A DNA stretch of 40,205 nucleotides from an uncultured Gammaproteobacteria bacterium (GCA_964640515.1 CAZXFG010000002.1:1-40205), one strand, 5' to 3'. Positions 9,072 through 39,323 are shown, numbered from the stretch's first letter. Notes: generated by a model from the sequence alone, not told the origin. Made by a program: numbers and translations.

Positions 9072-9458
9072 ATGTCAGAAGTTCCCCAACAAACTAAGAA
9101 GGAACTCCCCTCTTTAGACTATATAGCCGGCCTAGTTTCCAGCCGCGGTAATTTTGGTTGGGCTAAAAAAGGAAAGCGGATAATCCCCTTCTTCCAAATC
9201 AAGATCCATCGTTCAGAACTCTCCACTCTTAAACTTGTTAAAGCCAAACTGGGTTTAAGGGAAAAGATATACGAATATTGCCATCAAAACAGAAACTATG
9301 CTTTACTGCTGGTAAGAAAAAAACTGGTCCTGGAACAGACGATTATACCCTCGTTTGAATTCCGCCTGTTTGGCGCGAGGCAAAAACAGTTTGAAAAATG
9401 GAAAAAACGGTTTTACCGGATATGGTTAGCCAAACTCTACCCGGAAGCTAAAATTTAA
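9072..9458 (+). CDS. Free-standing single-motif LAGLIDADG-like protein (degenerate motif)
   Basis: 128 aa. LDYIAGLVSSRGNF aligns by eye with the LAGLIDADG helix (YLAGFIDGEG type). It is followed by a beta-rich basic region typical of these folds (FFQIKIHRSELSTLKLVKAKLGL...IIPSFEF..LFGARQKQFEKW). Confidence 0.55.
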   Translation: MSEVPQQTKKELPSLDYIAGLVSSRGNFGWAKKGKRIIPFFQIKIHRSELSTLKLVKAKLGLREKIYEYCHQNRNYALLLVRKKLVLEQTIIPSFEFRLFGARQKQFEKWKKRFYRIWLAKLYPEAKI

Positions 9459-9625: not shown

Positions 9626-9696
9626 TGGACCTAGGCAGAATCGAACTGCCGTCCCAGCAATGCGAATGCTGTGTTCTACCACTGAACCATAGGCCC
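9626..9696 (-). tRNA. tRNA-Ala (anticodon CGC)
   Basis: Cloverleaf folded by hand: acceptor GGGCCTA/TAGGTCC with the G3:U70 Ala identity pair, anticodon stem CAGCA/TGCTG, loop TTCGCAT, T-arm GGCAG-TTCGATT-CTGCC. No encoded CCA. Confidence 0.9.
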
Positions 9697-9752: not shown

Positions 9753-9827
9753 TGGTGCCCCCGAAGGGAATTGAACCCCTATTTTGTCCTTAGGACGGAC
9801 CTGTTCTATCCGTTGAACTACGGGGGC
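9753..9827 (-). tRNA. tRNA-Arg (anticodon CCT)
   Basis: Acceptor GCCCCCG/CGGGGGC, D-arm GTTC..GAAC, anticodon loop GTCCTAA, T-arm AGGGG-TTCAATT-CCCTT, encoded 3' ACCA. Confidence 0.9.
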
Positions 9828-21372: not shown

Positions 21373-21588
21373 ATGCGTCAAATTTTGAATATTTCTCTAC
21401 CCGCCCAAATGGCCACCTTAGTAAAACAAGAACTAAAGAATGGCGAGTACGCTAGCACTAGCGAGTTTTTCCGCTGTCTACTCCGAGGATGGATGGAAGA
21501 ACGGGCATTGATAGAACTTAATAAAGGCCGTAAGGAAATAATATTAGGCCGAGCTAAGAAACTTCGTTCTCTCAAAGATTTGCGGTAA
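21373..21588 (+). CDS. Type II antitoxin, ribbon-helix-helix (ParD/CopG-like)
   Basis: 71 aa. N-terminal beta strand (ILNISLPAQMATLV) plus ...YASTSEFFRCLLRGW fits the RHH/ParD pattern. It lies 18 nt upstream of the toxin gene. Confidence 0.7.
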   Translation: MRQILNISLPAQMATLVKQELKNGEYASTSEFFRCLLRGWMEERALIELNKGRKEIILGRAKKLRSLKDLR

Positions 21589-21606
21589 AATATCTTTAAG
21601 GAGGGT

Positions 21607-21864
21607 ATGGATATTTTTTATACAACCAAATTTTCCAGAGAATATAAAAAGCTACCAGAACAGATTAAAAATATAGCCGAAAAACAAGAACAGATTTTTC
21701 GGCAAAACCCTTTTTCTCCTGTTCTGAAGACGCATAAATTGGGAGGTAAATTAAAAAAGTTCTGGTCTTTCTCTATAGGATATAAGTACAGAATAATATT
21801 TGAATTCGGTAAGAATGAAACTGTAAATTTTTTATTAATTGGCACACACGAAATATACCAATAA
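21607..21864 (+). CDS. Type II toxin, RelE/ParE superfamily
   Basis: 85 aa. F.REYKKLP...HKLGGKLKKFWSFSIGYKYRIIFEF..ETVNFLLIGTHEIY is a typical RelE/ParE-fold pattern. Confidence 0.75.
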   Translation: MDIFYTTKFSREYKKLPEQIKNIAEKQEQIFRQNPFSPVLKTHKLGGKLKKFWSFSIGYKYRIIFEFGKNETVNFLLIGTHEIYQ

Positions 21865-22017: not shown

Positions 22018-22046
22018 TTGACATTTCTCTCAATTTAAAGTAAAAT
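22018..22046 (+). promoter_or_regulatory. Sigma70-like promoter for tig
   Basis: TTGACA (22018-22023), a 17-nt spacer, then TAAAAT (22041-22046). This places repeat copy A inside the tig 5' UTR. Confidence 0.55.
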
Positions 22047-22067: not shown

Positions 22068-22187
22068 TAGGATATGTAGATTTGGTAATTTTCTCGCTTT
22101 CCTCGGCCGCCAAGGCCCCCGCCTAGGCGGGTGAAAAGCCTGTGGGCTGCATAACCCGCTCAAAAAATACCAAATCTACATATCCTA
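22068..22187 (+). repeat. Core-in-arms structured element, copy A (tig leader)
   Basis: Perfect 20-bp inverted arms TAGGATATGTAGATTTGGTA (22068-22087) and TACCAAATCTACATATCCTA (22168-22187). They enclose CTCGCTTTCCTCG..GGCC-gccaa-GGCC..CCCGCCTAGGCGGG..GCATAACCCGCTC. Confidence 0.85.
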
Positions 22188-26920: not shown

Positions 26921-27184
26921 CTATGGGAGATCTACTCCGCCTTTGTTAAAAGGATTACACCGTAAAACTCTCCAAACGGCCTTTGGCACACCAACCAACA
27001 GGCCTCTTTTTTTTATCACCTGATATCCATATTCACTGCAGGACGGATAAAAACGGCAGTAGCCATGCGGGAACAGGTATTTTAATAATCCGTGGTCAGG
27101 AGACACCGTTTTTTGATAAATTTTAATGAATAGGGCCACAACTCGCCTTGGCAACCAGATAATTTCCTTGATAGCGCGATGCAT
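26921..27184 (-). CDS. yidD: Membrane protein insertion efficiency factor YidD
   Basis: YQKTVSP......CRFYPSCSEYGYQVIKKRG...RVLRCNPF..GG is the YidD signature. It lies immediately downstream of rnpA. Confidence 0.9.
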   Translation of the reverse strand: MHRAIKEIIWLPRRVVALFIKIYQKTVSPDHGLLKYLFPHGYCRFYPSCSEYGYQVIKKRGLLVGVPKAVWRVLRCNPFNKGGVDLP

Positions 27185-27186
27185 AA

Positions 27187-27576
27187 TTACAAAATACCGA
27201 ATTTTTTCAACAAACCCACCGCTTCTTTTTCTATGGCCGCGTATTCTTGGCCCAAAATATCCTTTTTGGCCACAAACAATAAATAAAAACCTGTTTTCAA
27301 ACGATTTTCTTTTACCAACAAACGAACTACCTCACGCATCTGCCGACGCACCCGATTCCGCGCTACAGCCCGCTTATCTATCTTCAAACCCACGGTAAAA
27401 GCCACCTTAAGTTGCCCTACAAACTCCGTCGAATCCACTTTTTTGGGAAAATACTGTCTCACTTTGGCCAGCTCCAAACATTTCAAATCCAAAAACCGGC
27501 CATTTGCCCAACAGCCGTATTTCATCAGCAAATTAAAATCCCGGACTTTTTTTAAACGATTGGTTTCTTGTAGCAT
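27187..27576 (-). CDS. rnpA: Ribonuclease P protein component
   Basis: LKKVRDFNLLMKYG...AFTVGLKIDKRAVARNRVRRQMREVVR is the RnpA RNR motif region. The start was moved to ATG 27576, because the track start at 27651 would translate repeat copy C. Confidence 0.85.
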   Translation of the reverse strand: MLQETNRLKKVRDFNLLMKYGCWANGRFLDLKCLELAKVRQYFPKKVDSTEFVGQLKVAFTVGLKIDKRAVARNRVRRQMREVVRLLVKENRLKTGFYLLFVAKKDILGQEYAAIEKEAVGLLKKFGIL

Positions 27577-27609
27577 AATATTTATAATATACCATACCTG
27601 GTTGACCCT

Positions 27610-27696
27610 GCGCCAGATATTTTCCGAGCGGGTTATGCGCCCGAGGCGCATCCCCGAGTCCTCGCGGACGAGGAAAGCGAGGGAACTATCTGGCGC
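27610..27696 (-). repeat. Core-in-arms structured element, copy C (rpmH-rnpA spacer)
   Basis: 10-bp arms GCGCCAGATA (27610-27619) and TATCTGGCGC (27687-27696). They enclose GAGCGGGTTATGCGCCCGAGGCGCATCCCCGAGTCCTCGCGGACGAGGAAAGCGAG. Confidence 0.85.
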
Positions 27697-27704
27697 GCTG
27701 AATC

Positions 27705-27729
27705 AAAAAGAGCCCGGATGGCTCTTTTT
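27705..27729 (-). terminator. Hairpin terminator after rpmH
   Basis: The minus strand reads AGAGCC-auccg-GGCUCU followed by UUUUU, 13 nt after the rpmH stop. Confidence 0.6.
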
Positions 27730-27741
27730 ATTTAGTTTTCT

Positions 27742-27912
27742 CTATTTCCTCAATCTTTTTCCTTTCTTTTCATCTGACACGGTCAGTTTCTTACGGCCTT
27801 TGGCGCGGCGGCGGCTCAAGACGGTTCGGCCGTTTTTCGTGCTCATCCGCTTTCTAAAACCATGGCTTTTCATTCTCTTGCGTTTTTTAGGCTGGTAAGT
27901 TCGTTTTGGCAT
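27742..27912 (-). CDS. rpmH: 50S ribosomal protein L34
   Basis: Hand-translated 56-aa ORF, below the track size cutoff: [56 protein letters not shown]. This is the canonical L34 sequence in the canonical position upstream of rnpA. Confidence 0.92.
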
Positions 27913-27934
27913 ATTTTAACATTTAATATCTGGA

Positions 27935-28033
27935 GTCACATATTTGGTATTTTTTGAGCGGGTTATGCCGCCGAAGCGGCATCCCCGAGCCCTTGGCGGG
28001 CGAGGAAAGCGAAAAAAATACCAAATATGTGAC
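27935..28033 (-). repeat. Core-in-arms structured element, copy B (rpmH leader)
   Basis: Perfect 21-bp arms GTCACATATTTGGTATTTTTT (27935-27955) and AAAAAATACCAAATATGTGAC (28013-28033). They enclose GAGCGGGTTATGCCGCCGAAGCGGCATCCCCGAGCCCTTGGCGGGCGAGGAAAGCGA. Confidence 0.85.
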
Positions 28034-28057
28034 CCGCAAACTATTTTTAATAAATTA

Positions 28058-28086
28058 AGTATACTCTAATTTTGACAAAAAGTCAA
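28058..28086 (-). promoter_or_regulatory. Sigma70-like promoter for rpmH
   Basis: Minus strand reads TTGACT (28086-28081), a 17-nt spacer, then TATACT (28063-28058). Confidence 0.55.
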
Positions 28087-28100
28087 GGGAACTATATTAT
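28072..28100 (+). promoter_or_regulatory. Sigma70-like promoter for dnaA
   Basis: TTGACA (28072-28077), a 17-nt spacer, then TATTAT (28095-28100). Its -35 lies face to face with the rpmH -35 (TTGACAAAAAGTCAA). Confidence 0.55.
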
Positions 28101-28107
28101 GCCACCG

Positions 28108-28184
28108 CTATCCACAGCTTATCCACACTCCATCTACTTTATTGCCCGCCCGCTCGGTTTGTCATATCCCAACCGTGTGGTAGA
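28108..28184. other. Upstream DnaA-box cluster (oriC part 1 / dnaA autoregulation)
   Basis: CTATCCACA (28108-28116), perfect TTATCCACA (28119-28127) and inverted TGTGGTAGA (28176-28184). Confidence 0.65.
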
Positions 28185-29621: not shown

Positions 29622-29882
29622 TTTTGGCTAACTAAAAAGGTTATCAACAGTTGTTGTGTATAAGTTGTTGGTGAACGGTGATAACACCACATACATATCA
29701 ACAGATTTTATCCAAAAACATTTTTGACATAAAGTTGCCCACATATTAAGATACTTTTAACGCACTTTATATCCACAAATATTTTGGCTAACATAAAACA
29801 AAAAAAACAGTTATCCTCTCTATCCACATCCTTATTATGATTATTACTTTAATATATACTTAAAGATAATATAACAGACAAT
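29622..29882. other. dnaA-dnaN intergenic origin region (oriC part 2: DnaA boxes + AT-rich unwinding stretch)
   Basis: DnaA-box-like 9-mers: TTATCAACA (29641), ATATCAACA (29695), TTATCCAAA (29708), ATATCCACA (29769), TTATCCTCT (29811) and CTATCCACA (29820). An AT-rich run follows at about 29832-29880. Confidence 0.65.
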
Positions 29883-37663: not shown

Positions 37664-38398
37664 ATGAAAACTACGAATTTAACCGCAACCCTTCAAAATT
37701 TGGGTCTAAACGAGAAAGAAGCCAAAGTATACTTGGCTTGTCTTGAGTTGGGGAGCGCGACAGTGCAAGAAGTGTCCGATAAAGCGGGAGTAAAACGAAC
37801 GAGCGTGTACAACTTTCTTGAAGATATGAAAGCGCGCGGTTTTATTACAGAAGTAAAGCAGGGGAAGAAAATGCTTTTGATTGCTGAAGATCCGCGCGCG
37901 CTTCTTAAAAAAGCGGATGAACAGAAAAAACAACTGGAAGAAATTCTGCCCGAGTTTTTGAGCATTTACAATTTGCCGGGTGAAAAACCGAAAGTGCGGT
38001 TTTATCAAGGTATCGATGGGTTGAAACGAATCTATGAAGACACTCTCAAAGAGGGCGGGGAGATTTATTTAATATCAGACTACGAAAAAATGTTTTCAGC
38101 GATTGAGCCGGATTGGATGTGGCAGTACGCGAAACTACGCGCGGAAGAGGGAATCAAAGCATTTTCCATTTCAAAAGATGGGCCAATGGCGCGGGAAGTT
38201 AAAATAAGAGATAGCGAGCAGTTGCGTGAAACTCGTTTTGTCAAAGATGTTAATTTTGAAACCGAAATCAATATCTATGGCGATAAAGTCGCGTTACTTA
38301 GTTTCCGCAGTCCGTATGCGGGGGTGATTATTGAAGACAGAGCAATTGCGCAAACATTACGATCGATGTGGAAGATAATTTGGAATCAAGCAAAGTAG
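37664..38398 (+). CDS. TrmB family transcriptional regulator
   Basis: N-terminal LQNLGLNEKEAKVYLACLELGSATVQEVSDKAGVKRTSVYNFLEDMKARGFI is the TrmB-type wHTH. The C-terminus is an effector-like domain. Confidence 0.85.
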   Translation: MKTTNLTATLQNLGLNEKEAKVYLACLELGSATVQEVSDKAGVKRTSVYNFLEDMKARGFITEVKQGKKMLLIAEDPRALLKKADEQKKQLEEILPEFLSIYNLPGEKPKVRFYQGIDGLKRIYEDTLKEGGEIYLISDYEKMFSAIEPDWMWQYAKLRAEEGIKAFSISKDGPMAREVKIRDSEQLRETRFVKDVNFETEINIYGDKVALLSFRSPYAGVIIEDRAIAQTLRSMWKIIWNQAK

Positions 38399-38475
38399 AA
38401 AAGGCGATTGAGGTTGTTTTTTATGGTAAAATGTGGTAAAATACCAGCGCTAAAGTACTGTTAGCGCCATTTATT

Positions 38476-38670
38476 ATGCGTAATTGGAGCGTAGACACCA
38501 AAGAGCTCAAGAAAGATAAAAAGAAGTATGCCGTCTGGCGATTGGAGCAGTTGGTGAATTTTGGTTTGGGAAAGGAAAAAATTGACGCTAAACAGCTGAA
38601 AAAAAATTGGGGTTTATTGCGTCTAGATCCGCGTAAAAAATCTTTTTTAAAAACTCTTTTATGGCCGTAG
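38476..38670 (+). CDS. Small hypothetical protein upstream of and overlapping the AbiEii-like gene
   Basis: 64-aa basic ORF that overlaps the next gene by 10 nt. No recognisable HTH. Confidence 0.45.
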   Translation: MRNWSVDTKELKKDKKKYAVWRLEQLVNFGLGKEKIDAKQLKKNWGLLRLDPRKKSFLKTLLWP

Positions 38671-39323
38671 GTATCATCTTGAGCGTCAATCAACAAAAAT
38701 TATTACAACTGATTGGCAAGGATAAAATAATTTGCGATAATTTTTATTTGACCGGCGGCACAGCCCTGGCGGAATATTATTTACAGCATCGATTGTCCGA
38801 GGATCTGGATTTTTTTTCTGAAACGGAATTTATTCCGCAGGTTATTTCTGTTTTTTTCAAAAAGATTCAAAAGAAAGCGGGGATTAAAAAAATTGAATTT
38901 GAACAGAGTTTTAACCGCAATTTGTTTTTTTTAGATTTGGGCGGCGATTCCATTAAAACCGAATTTACTTATTTTCCTTTTTCGCGGATAGAAAAAACCA
39001 AAAAAATTGGCCAGCTGGCCATTGATAGTTTGGTGGATATTGCCGTGAATAAAGTGTTTACGATTTATCAAAAACCGCGGGCGCGCGATTTTATTGATTT
39101 GTATCTTATTATTCAACAACAGGGTTGGAAAATAGCCGATTTGACTAAGAAAGCCAAGGTTAAATTTGATTGGCATATTGATCCTCTGCAATTAGGATCT
39201 CAATTTATGCAAGCGACAGAGGTGAAAGATTATCCAAAAATGACGGTGGAAATCAAGCACGAAGATTGGCAGAAATTTTTTACGGCTGAAGCTAAAAAAT
39301 TTAAAAATAAAATTTTAGTTTAA
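38661..39323 (+). CDS. Nucleotidyltransferase AbiEii/AbiGii toxin family protein
   Basis: FYLTGGTALAEYYLQHRLSEDLDFF matches the AbiEii (DUF1814) NTase motif (GGTAL...R.S.DLDF). Confidence 0.78.
   Translation: MAVGIILSVNQQKLLQLIGKDKIICDNFYLTGGTALAEYYLQHRLSEDLDFFSETEFIPQVISVFFKKIQKKAGIKKIEFEQSFNRNLFFLDLGGDSIKTEFTYFPFSRIEKTKKIGQLAIDSLVDIAVNKVFTIYQKPRARDFIDLYLIIQQQGWKIADLTKKAKVKFDWHIDPLQLGSQFMQATEVKDYPKMTVEIKHEDWQKFFTAEAKKFKNKILV

Follow-up and report, generated by a model that had tools for sequence, protein, structure and literature searches.

A sparse family of hairpin elements with a conserved core in Patescibacteria and its copies at tig and rpmH

Three hairpins at tig and rpmH

The window analyzed in this study, a stretch of 40,205 nucleotides (nt) deposited under the name of an uncultured Gammaproteobacteria bacterium (GCA_964640515.1 CAZXFG010000002.1:1-40205), carries yidD, rnpA and rpmH on its minus strand (26921-27912) and dnaA and dnaN on its plus strand from 28215 onwards, and the relatives of its DnaA point to a Magasanikbacteria-like genome. 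The compact genomes of the Patescibacteria, or Candidate Phyla Radiation (CPR), comprise about 1 Mb, and knowledge of their non-coding and mobile content is scarce. Our work concerns three copies of a hairpin element in this window, termed A, B and C, each consisting of a shared core inside complementary arms, whose sequences were found to be as described in an original prediction made from the sequence alone. Copies B and C flank rpmH and copy A resides upstream of tig. Their parts and the adjacent signals are listed below, with coordinates counted from the first position of the window.

27935-28033, plus strand (core strand): copy B, whole hairpin element; scored by the family model at 104.7 bits; antisense to the rpmH leader
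27935-27955, plus strand: copy B, 5' arm of the closing stem P1, GTCACATATTTGGTATTTTTT; 21/21 complementary to 28013-28033
28013-28033, plus strand: copy B, 3' arm of P1; pairs with 27935-27955
27956-28012, plus strand: copy B, core, 57 nt between the arms
within 27956-28012, plus strand: copy B, 5' part of the core: GA; GC; GGG-UU-AUGCCGC(CGAA)GCGGCAU-CCC (P2)
within 27956-28012, plus strand: copy B, 3' part of the core: CGA; GCCC(UUGGC)GGGC (P3); GAGGAAA; GC; GA
27610-27696, plus strand: copy C; 90 bits; antisense to both rpmH and rnpA
27610-27625 and 27681-27696: copy C, arms of 16 nt, 88% complementary, the outer 10 base pairs (bp) perfect
27626-27680, plus strand: copy C, core
22068-22187, core on the minus strand: copy A; 56.4 bits; in the predicted tig leader, antisense
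22163-22187 and 22068-22092: copy A, arms of 25 nt, 96% complementary
22094-22161, minus strand: copy A, core
28086-28058, minus strand: sigma-70-like rpmH promoter site TTGACT-17-TATACT, upstream of B, placing B in the rpmH leader
22018-22046, plus strand: promoter-like tig site TTGACA-17-TAAAAT, upstream of A, placing A in the tig leader
27705-27729, bidirectional: terminator-like hairpin separating C from the rpmH stop, outside the element

The sequence GAGCGGGTTATGC occurs exactly three times in the window (22149-22161 on the minus strand, 27626-27638 and 27956-27968 on the plus strand), and each of these occurrences is followed by one of exactly three occurrences of CGAGGAAAGCGA. Copy A is divergent in its middle, where it contains an extra hairpin (CCCGCC-UA-GGCGGG) and a degenerate P2, and it scores 56 bits compared to 90-105 bits for C and B. 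On the core strand, all three copies fold with a stability that was matched by none of 200 shuffled sequences (z-scores of -7.5 for B, -5.3 for C and -7.9 for A), and the gene-sense strand of B also folds stably (z = -9.1). The covariation of the two inner hairpins among the window copies had been noted previously, and the quoted pairs are correct. The outer arms had in turn been described as unrelated in sequence, which holds for the free outer part of the stem but not for its inner part, where A and B share 15 nt (ATTTGGTATTTTTTG) and where about 10 bp are semi-conserved across the family. As predictions, the assigned positions of B between the rpmH promoter and its ATG and of C between the rpmH terminator hairpin and rnpA both hold, and the three copies have the same sense relative to their genes, all lying within the predicted tig, rpmH and rpmH-rnpA transcripts, with A located 14 nt upstream of the tig ATG and C located between the rpmH stop and the probable start of rnpA (27578). 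The element can mislead gene callers, as the called start of rnpA is found inside C: the longest rnpA open reading frame (ORF; 27187-27651, minus strand, 154 residues), which is also the public gene call on L042-L044, begins at an ATG within the element, and its first ~24 residues correspond to C plus flank. The true start of rnpA is likely the ATG at 27578 (MLQETNRLKK...).

A conserved fold on one strand

Further copies were identified in scans for the exact core ends in species-representative genomes and metagenomes of the Joint Genome Institute (JGI), and the fetched loci were searched with a covariance model (24 copies) and in an orphan-half search. Together, these approaches revealed about 30 distinct intact and two degenerate copies, some of which were recovered by the model only and carry the core variants AUGG, AUGA, CCUUGAG and GAAGAAA. 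Nearly all copies reside on contigs of Patescibacteria, labelled as Saccharibacteria, Magasanikiibacteriota or Patescibacteria; one metagenome-assembled genome (contig L005) was binned as Gammaproteobacteria, a label that could not be confirmed. The distribution is sparse, with exact-core matches in only four genomes, comprising six true copies, among 185,579 species representatives, and with two further exact-core stretches (L007 and L008) that looked like chance. The family may be broader than exact-core scans reveal. In Rfam, the whole window matched only three tRNAs at the gathering score and the region 27560-28080 matched, at E<=10, only generic hairpin and microRNA models far under their thresholds, and the element thus matches no family, ribozymes, Y RNA/YrlA and ribosomal-protein leaders included; the original prediction had likewise not recognized the core as any described RNA family. 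Similarly, neither the core sequence nor a comparable structured-RNA motif or miniature inverted-repeat transposable element (MITE) of CPR bacteria is described in searchable papers, and this insertion element of ~100 bases in Patescibacteria is apparently undescribed so far. A phage or viral origin was rejected, since phage genomes (blastn) and IMG/VR (three pattern scans) contained no true copy and the single hit (L054) is a chance match in coding sequence that is unmatched by the family model. As a separate observation, a weak GC-rich relative of 22.5 bits on a Saccharibacteria contig (L001 3559-3693, minus strand) keeps CGGGUU...CCCUGAG-hairpin-GAGGAAAA in complementary arms, without the GAGC/GCGA step.

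All copies follow a common plan on the strand reading GAGCGGGUUAUGC. A closing stem of 13-29 bp is outermost; next come a tandem G.A and a GC/GC step, followed by a three-way junction, in which GGG-UU-AUG is followed by a variable hairpin of 4-5 bp, CAU-CCC, YGA, a hairpin of 3-7 bp (P3), whose loop is usually UCGC, and GAGGAAA. In the outer part of the closing stem the sequence is free and complementarity is kept: the outer 8-15 bp are unrelated between most copies and the inner ~10-14 bp are semi-conserved, with pyrimidines prevailing on the 5' arm and purines on the 3' arm of the inner ~10 bp. In 16 of 28 copies, this inner part is interrupted by a U.U or U.C mismatch at a constant position, ~6 bp away from the core. 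In the model alignment of these 28 copies, standard pairs account for 95.1% of the cells compared to 67.3% in shuffles and 32-48% with slid partners, both sides have changed in 290 cells compared to 90 in shuffles, and 28 of the 37 pairs covary, so that the helices covary well above shuffles; covariation was also computed on a MAFFT-based alignment. Two additional interactions were rejected: the hairpin-2 loop CCUCG could base-pair with CGAGG, and UCGC with GCGA in a pseudoknot, but neither is kept in the loop variants UUGGC, CCGC and UAAG, whereas the P3 pairs covary. By eye, the junction was compared to group II intron domain V, the kink-turn, the hammerhead junction order, the 11-nt receptor and CR-I of RNase P (GAGGAAAG), none of which fits.

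Inverted repeats in duplex DNA also yield apparent covariation, and it is thus the type of mismatch that provides a useful signal for the strand. On the core strand, the arm alignments contain 15 G.U or U.G compared to 2 A.C or C.A mismatches (binomial p=0.002) and the model alignment contains 32 G.U compared to 7 A.C. The core strand is also more stable than its complement in 19 of 26 copies, and the C-to-U variation in CCCYGAG and CUCCGAG retains the pairing with GGG on this strand only. The G.U bias persists in copies located antisense inside operons, and in the window the wobble bias is seen in A and C. A mutational strand bias is an unlikely cause, given the mixed orientation of the copies to genes and to replication. 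The large excess of G.U over A.C therefore identifies the core strand as the one whose fold is selected, and it is the fold of this single strand that constitutes the conserved feature of the element. In the window, the selected strand is consequently the antisense of tig, rpmH and rnpA, and the UUCG and GCGA loops, which had been emphasized as stable tetraloops, are both located on the non-selected strand. The cumulative GC-skew has its minimum at ~29-30 kb, with A (minus) and B and C (plus) on one replichore. An orientation linked to replication, as in IS200/IS605, is unsupported by the opposite directions of A and of B and C on this replichore, in a comparison that involves three copies only.

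Gain, loss and re-insertion of entire hairpins

Among the copies with both neighbours called, about 8 are antisense and 7 sense to co-directional genes, 4-5 are placed between divergent and 3 between convergent genes, and the gaps to the flanking genes are often as short as 1-40 nt. The neighbours are unrelated housekeeping genes, encoding EF-P, GatB, CysRS, PilM, RNase H, MiaA, RelA/SpoT, ArgRS, TyrRS, YceG, ClpP, DprA, TopA, SmpB, UvrC and others, and no neighbouring protein recurs across loci beyond the shared synteny of the pil operon. The orientation of the element is thus random across the family and independent of neighbouring genes, a result that the original prediction had named as one that would speak against its proposal of a structured RNA functional on the gene-sense strand. 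From this proposal, the existence of a family with conserved core and covarying helices has proven real, whereas the gene-linked, gene-sense role conflicts with the random orientation, the dissimilar neighbours and the wobble pairs that mark the opposite strand. As a reason for the existence of the family, gene-sense regulation in cis is largely refuted. The occurrence of -10-like boxes upstream of the element shows no asymmetry between strands (13 on the core and 14 on the other strand, of 28 copies), and the same is the case for T-runs of at least five in seven positions after the stem (9/28 compared to 10/28). T-tracts beside the stem are found only in three cases of convergent genes. An intrinsic terminator was rejected, as the U-tract is not strand-biased and as A and B are located between promoter and start codon.

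Related genomes contain the same loci without the element. In L041, whose DnaA is 76% identical, the order of tig, an nfo-like gene, yidD, rnpA, rpmH, dnaA and dnaN is the same, but C is absent and rnpA overlaps rpmH, B is absent from an rpmH-dnaA spacer of 189 nt, and A is absent from a leader of ~35 nt that follows the same tig promoter and that compares to ~148 nt in the window; the family model finds no match on this locus. In L052 (DnaA 84% identical), a spacer of 209 nt between rpmH and dnaA aligns on both sides of B and contains at its site 17 unrelated bases, with neither B nor a palindrome. With L041 empty at all three sites and L052 at that of B, the element shows an insertion polymorphism of the type found in MITEs. 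At 76-85% protein identity, the spacers of these relatives are too diverged to define exact insertion junctions, and contigs with identical RpmH are of the same strain as the window.

A second locus that illustrates gain and loss is the divergent spacer between pilM and cysS, where a copy in the same orientation is found in L002, L035 and L049/L050 but not in L045/L047 or L048. In L049, the spacer contains an internally deleted remnant, in which the left arm and AGCGGGTTA are directly followed by the right arm and whose arm is identical to the L035 copy in 17 of 22 nt, identifying both as orthologous. The remnant is adjoined by a complete copy. The stem of this copy (CTCACAGGTTTGGTTGTTTTTG) and that of window copy B, which resides at another locus in another organism, are homologous from end to end and show two double substitutions, both compensated (AT/AT to GG/CC). 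The copies in L014, L021 and L022, also from separate loci, likewise have stems that are related to each other. Homologous stems at unrelated loci imply that the stem is carried along by the element, rather than taken from the target, and that pairing constrains its divergence. The entry of a smaller element into a pre-existing host palindrome or terminator was accordingly rejected, as the L052 site contains no palindrome, as the L049 copy has brought a stem homologous to that of B and as T-tracts next to the stem are confined to the three convergent cases. With respect to its position, the L049 remnant is located at ~2490-2530 on the minus strand of the locus (ACATTTTATATTTTCCGAGCGGGTTAAAAAATGT) and the full copy at 2385-2482; the remnant lies between the near-direct repeats TTAGTTTTAG and TTAGTTTTTAG, which is the only feature seen that resembles a target duplication. 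The pilM upstream regions of L035, L002, L045, L048 and L049 share CTTATCAACAGGGG followed by an extended -10 (TTTGRTATAAT), and these five spacers otherwise do not align.

Only one of the ~30 copies is intragenic. In L018, the element (1879-1976) is contained in frame within the ksgA/rsmA ORF (1528-2466), whose frame of 312 residues is intact and matches RrnaAD at 6e-50. In an alignment with KsgA of B. subtilis (PDB 6ifs), residues 1-115 correspond to 1-117 and residues 157-306 to 123-281, leaving an insert of ~36 residues just before the catalytic NLPY motif, exactly at the site of the element. A conserved peptide was nevertheless rejected as the feature common to the family, since each frame is free of stops in only 4-12 of 28 copies and most copies have stops in every frame; the common CCCTGAG variant places a stop in the frame used in ksgA.

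Copies also cluster. Besides B and C at rpmH, L027 contains a pair separated by about 1 kb (~74-170 and ~1116-1212), and the only two copies in the 21.5 kb of L053 (9891-9989 and 11482-11579) flank cysS. Non-identical pairs thus bracket one gene in three organisms, as direct repeats in the window and inverted in L053 and L027, which suggests either local re-insertion or a regional preference.

Collectively, these comparisons illustrate that the whole hairpin, including its stem, is gained, lost, decays and re-inserts at the level of DNA, and that it lands in tight intergenic spacers, in 5' untranslated regions and, in at least one case, within a gene whose frame is kept. The random orientation, the wobble pairs on the strand opposite to the genes, the empty sites in relatives and the copy in coding sequence argue for a mobile insertion and against a regulator of rpmH.

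Nature of the element and its relation to known systems

We consider it probable, with a rough estimate of 60%, that the three window copies belong to a sparsely distributed family of non-autonomous mobile hairpin elements of 95-125 nt in the Patescibacteria, and our data indicate that they are selfish insertions. Propagation would proceed via a single-stranded hairpin intermediate with the polarity of the core strand, consisting of either RNA or DNA. Its conserved apical junction would either serve as recognition site for a factor from another locus or act as a catalyst, and its stem would have no role beyond joining the two ends as a duplex. The positions in the leaders of tig and rpmH and between rpmH and rnpA would in this case be incidental; A and B may exert side effects on the tig and rpmH mRNA, and cleavage of the 20-bp duplex by RNase III is possible. 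The element enters the leaders of highly expressed genes (tig and rpmH) and a coding sequence (ksgA).

Several observations weigh against this assignment. A gene for a transposase, a reverse transcriptase or an HUH protein is neither found in the window nor recurrent in the ~300 kb of loci, and the flanks of 29 copies contain no target-site duplication or target consensus that would point to a mechanism. No two near-identical copies are found in one genome and no recent burst is visible. Even between distant CPR lineages the core hardly changes, as would also be expected from an RNA selected by the host, and since the scans required exact core ends, both its apparent conservation and the proportion of intact relative to decayed copies are overestimated. 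Finally, if L002, L035b and the L049 remnant are descendants of one insertion, the core has been held over ~25% protein divergence, and its retention at pilM-cysS would be explained more easily by a function at this site than by pure selfishness.

In the reduced genome of Rickettsia, hairpin repeats known as Rickettsia palindromic elements (RPEs) are tolerated both in leaders and as in-frame insertions in genes (PMC10969869). The described family resembles them as a set of hairpin-forming repeats of ~100-150 bp that have no transposase of their own, are scattered at or in unrelated housekeeping genes with tolerated in-frame insertions (here in ksgA), and undergo gain, loss and decay. However, RPE families are conserved over their full length with a conserved peptide, whereas here only the apex is conserved, the stem is free, stops interrupt every frame of most copies and intragenic copies are limited to one of ~30. 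The phylum is a different one, and a similarity in sequence is not expected. With bacterial MITEs (Correia/NEMIS, RUP, ERIC), the element shares its short, non-coding, hairpin-forming and mostly intergenic character, its co-transcription with neighbours, its polymorphic presence and its long duplexes as potential substrates of RNase III. In contrast to MITEs, whose terminal inverted repeats match a parent insertion sequence and which are flanked by target-site duplications, neither feature is found here, and the family is further set apart by its low copy number, the lack of two copies alike per genome and a fixed centre with free ends. The statement of the original prediction that this is not a classical MITE is supported by the lack of conserved termini and of target-site duplications. 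A third set of systems, comprising attC sites, repetitive extragenic palindromic (REP) sequences mobilized with RAYT and the ends of IS200/IS605, equally relies on the fold of one strand in an orientation independent of genes, with variable stems in which pairing and few extrahelical or mismatched positions are kept. Yet attC sites have R''/R' boxes (RYYYAAC / GTTRRRY) at the base of their hairpin, are organized in cassette arrays and adjoin intI, whereas our copies share no common sequence at the base of the hairpin, are solitary and have no integrase nearby. REPs, with 20-40 nt, are shorter, of high copy number and accompanied by a RAYT gene, and the ends of IS200/IS605 flank tnpA/tnpB; partners of the intI, RAYT or tnpA/tnpB type were not seen in the ~300 kb examined.

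With considerably lower probability, the junction itself could be active, as a small ribozyme of a new type or as the handle for a structure-specific enzyme, and would excise and re-insert the entire hairpin as a folded single strand. The ends of the element would in this case be set only by the limit of the stem, irrespective of its sequence, and the family would represent a new structure-defined class of mobile elements, so far confined to CPR bacteria. A catalytic core, or one that recruits a structure-specific enzyme, would amount to a novel mode of DNA mobility or a novel class of ribozymes. The usual logic of small bacterial repeats is inverted in this element, with a centre fixed between distant lineages, free ends and selection on one folded strand.

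Somewhat less probable again is a family of independently transcribed small RNA genes, whose products would, for example, bind protein with a long closing stem and a conserved apex, as in Y RNAs, and whose stems would have diverged between paralogues through compensatory change. The near-invariant nucleotides of the junction, the covarying helices and the strand-specific wobble pairs would all be expected from such genes, the possible retention at pilM-cysS in three lineages would be in line with them, and in the window C is preceded by a weak promoter-like site (27551-27579, plus strand) and followed by the terminator-like hairpin on the plus strand. This view is, however, at odds with the described lack of an excess of -10-like boxes and T-runs on the core strand, and with the many copies located at a distance of 1-20 nt from genes on both sides, within operons and antisense, where a promoter would not fit. 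It would also not account for the sporadic distribution in four genomes among the species representatives, for close relatives that are empty at the same sites, nor for the decayed copy and the copy inside a coding sequence.

We regard it as unlikely that the core is a new self-cleaving or self-ligating ribozyme residing in the hairpin, an explanation compatible with mobility in which the junction would be catalytic and not bind protein. Like the hammerhead, twister, twister-sister, pistol and hatchet ribozymes, the element combines an invariant junction with covarying stems and dispersed copies: its three-way junction is reminiscent of small ribozymes, with near-invariant YGA, GAGGAAA, UU bulge and tandem G.A next to free covarying helices, its copies are not associated with particular genes, and it is restricted to lineages that were poorly covered when the known classes were defined. 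Still, no covariance model of an Rfam ribozyme was matched even at E<=10, the order and sequences of the junction strands differ from those of the hammerhead in our own comparison, closing stems of 20-30 perfect bp are atypical for small ribozymes, and the in-frame and stop-free copy in ksgA appears to be translated through instead of being removed.

Slightly less credible still is an element acting in cis in the adjacent mRNA on the gene-sense strand, as leader or intercistronic structure, RNase III site or stabilizer. All three window copies share their sense within predicted transcripts, both strands fold very stably, as illustrated by the z-score of gene-sense B, and a duplex of 20 bp is a plausible substrate of RNase III. 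These properties contrast with the random orientation next to unrelated genes across the family, with wobble pairs that favour the other strand, including those of A and C, with the presence of the same leaders without the element in relatives, and with the fact that a plain duplex would not need a conserved core of 57 nt. Finally, it is very improbable that the element functions as palindrome in double-stranded DNA, either as protein-binding site or cruciform, with no folded single strand, because, although inverted repeats alone would give 'covariation' in all three helices and B is located in the rpmH-dnaA spacer near DnaA boxes, the strands of a duplex are equivalent whereas the described mismatches (G.T in case of DNA) predominate on one of them, the conserved junction strands are non-palindromic, and the Y.Y mismatch and UU bulge are conserved.

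TIGR-Tas systems consist of tandem stem-loop arrays beside a gene for a Tas protein with a Nop domain and contain variable spacers inside the loop (PMC12045711). Similar to the described family, these arrays occur in CPR bacteria and combine variable palindromic stems with box C/D-like tandem G.A motifs (PMC12045711). An origin as stem of such an array was rejected, as our copies are solitary with an invariant interior and as the window contains no Tas gene.

The element is also a possible cause of contig breaks. In a close relative (DnaA 85% identical), the contigs of three independent assemblies (L037-L039) terminate at one identical base, which lies 294 nt upstream of dnaA at TGACAGTTGTG, and a repeat like the hairpin element may account for these ends.

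Additional features were observed in the window. The palindrome TTGACAAAAAGTCAA contains the overlapping -35 boxes of divergent promoter-like sites for dnaA (28072-28100, plus strand) and rpmH (28086-28058, minus strand), and it is conserved in L037 and L052 and partly in L041. Repeats of the DnaA-box-like TATCCACA are found at ~28105-28130 and in the dnaA-dnaN spacer (~29700-29830), and the minimum of the cumulative GC-skew places oriC in this region. A small pair resembling an antitoxin and RelE-ParE (21373-21864, plus strand) is located just downstream of A on its core strand. A free-standing ORF of 128 residues with a match to LAGLIDADG homing endonucleases (9072-9458, plus strand; E 2.5e-6) adjoins the tRNA genes at 9626-9696 and 9756-9827 (minus strand), with no obvious surrounding intron. 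Near the right end of the window, a TrmB-like regulator is paired with an AbiEii nucleotidyltransferase toxin (37664-39323, plus strand).

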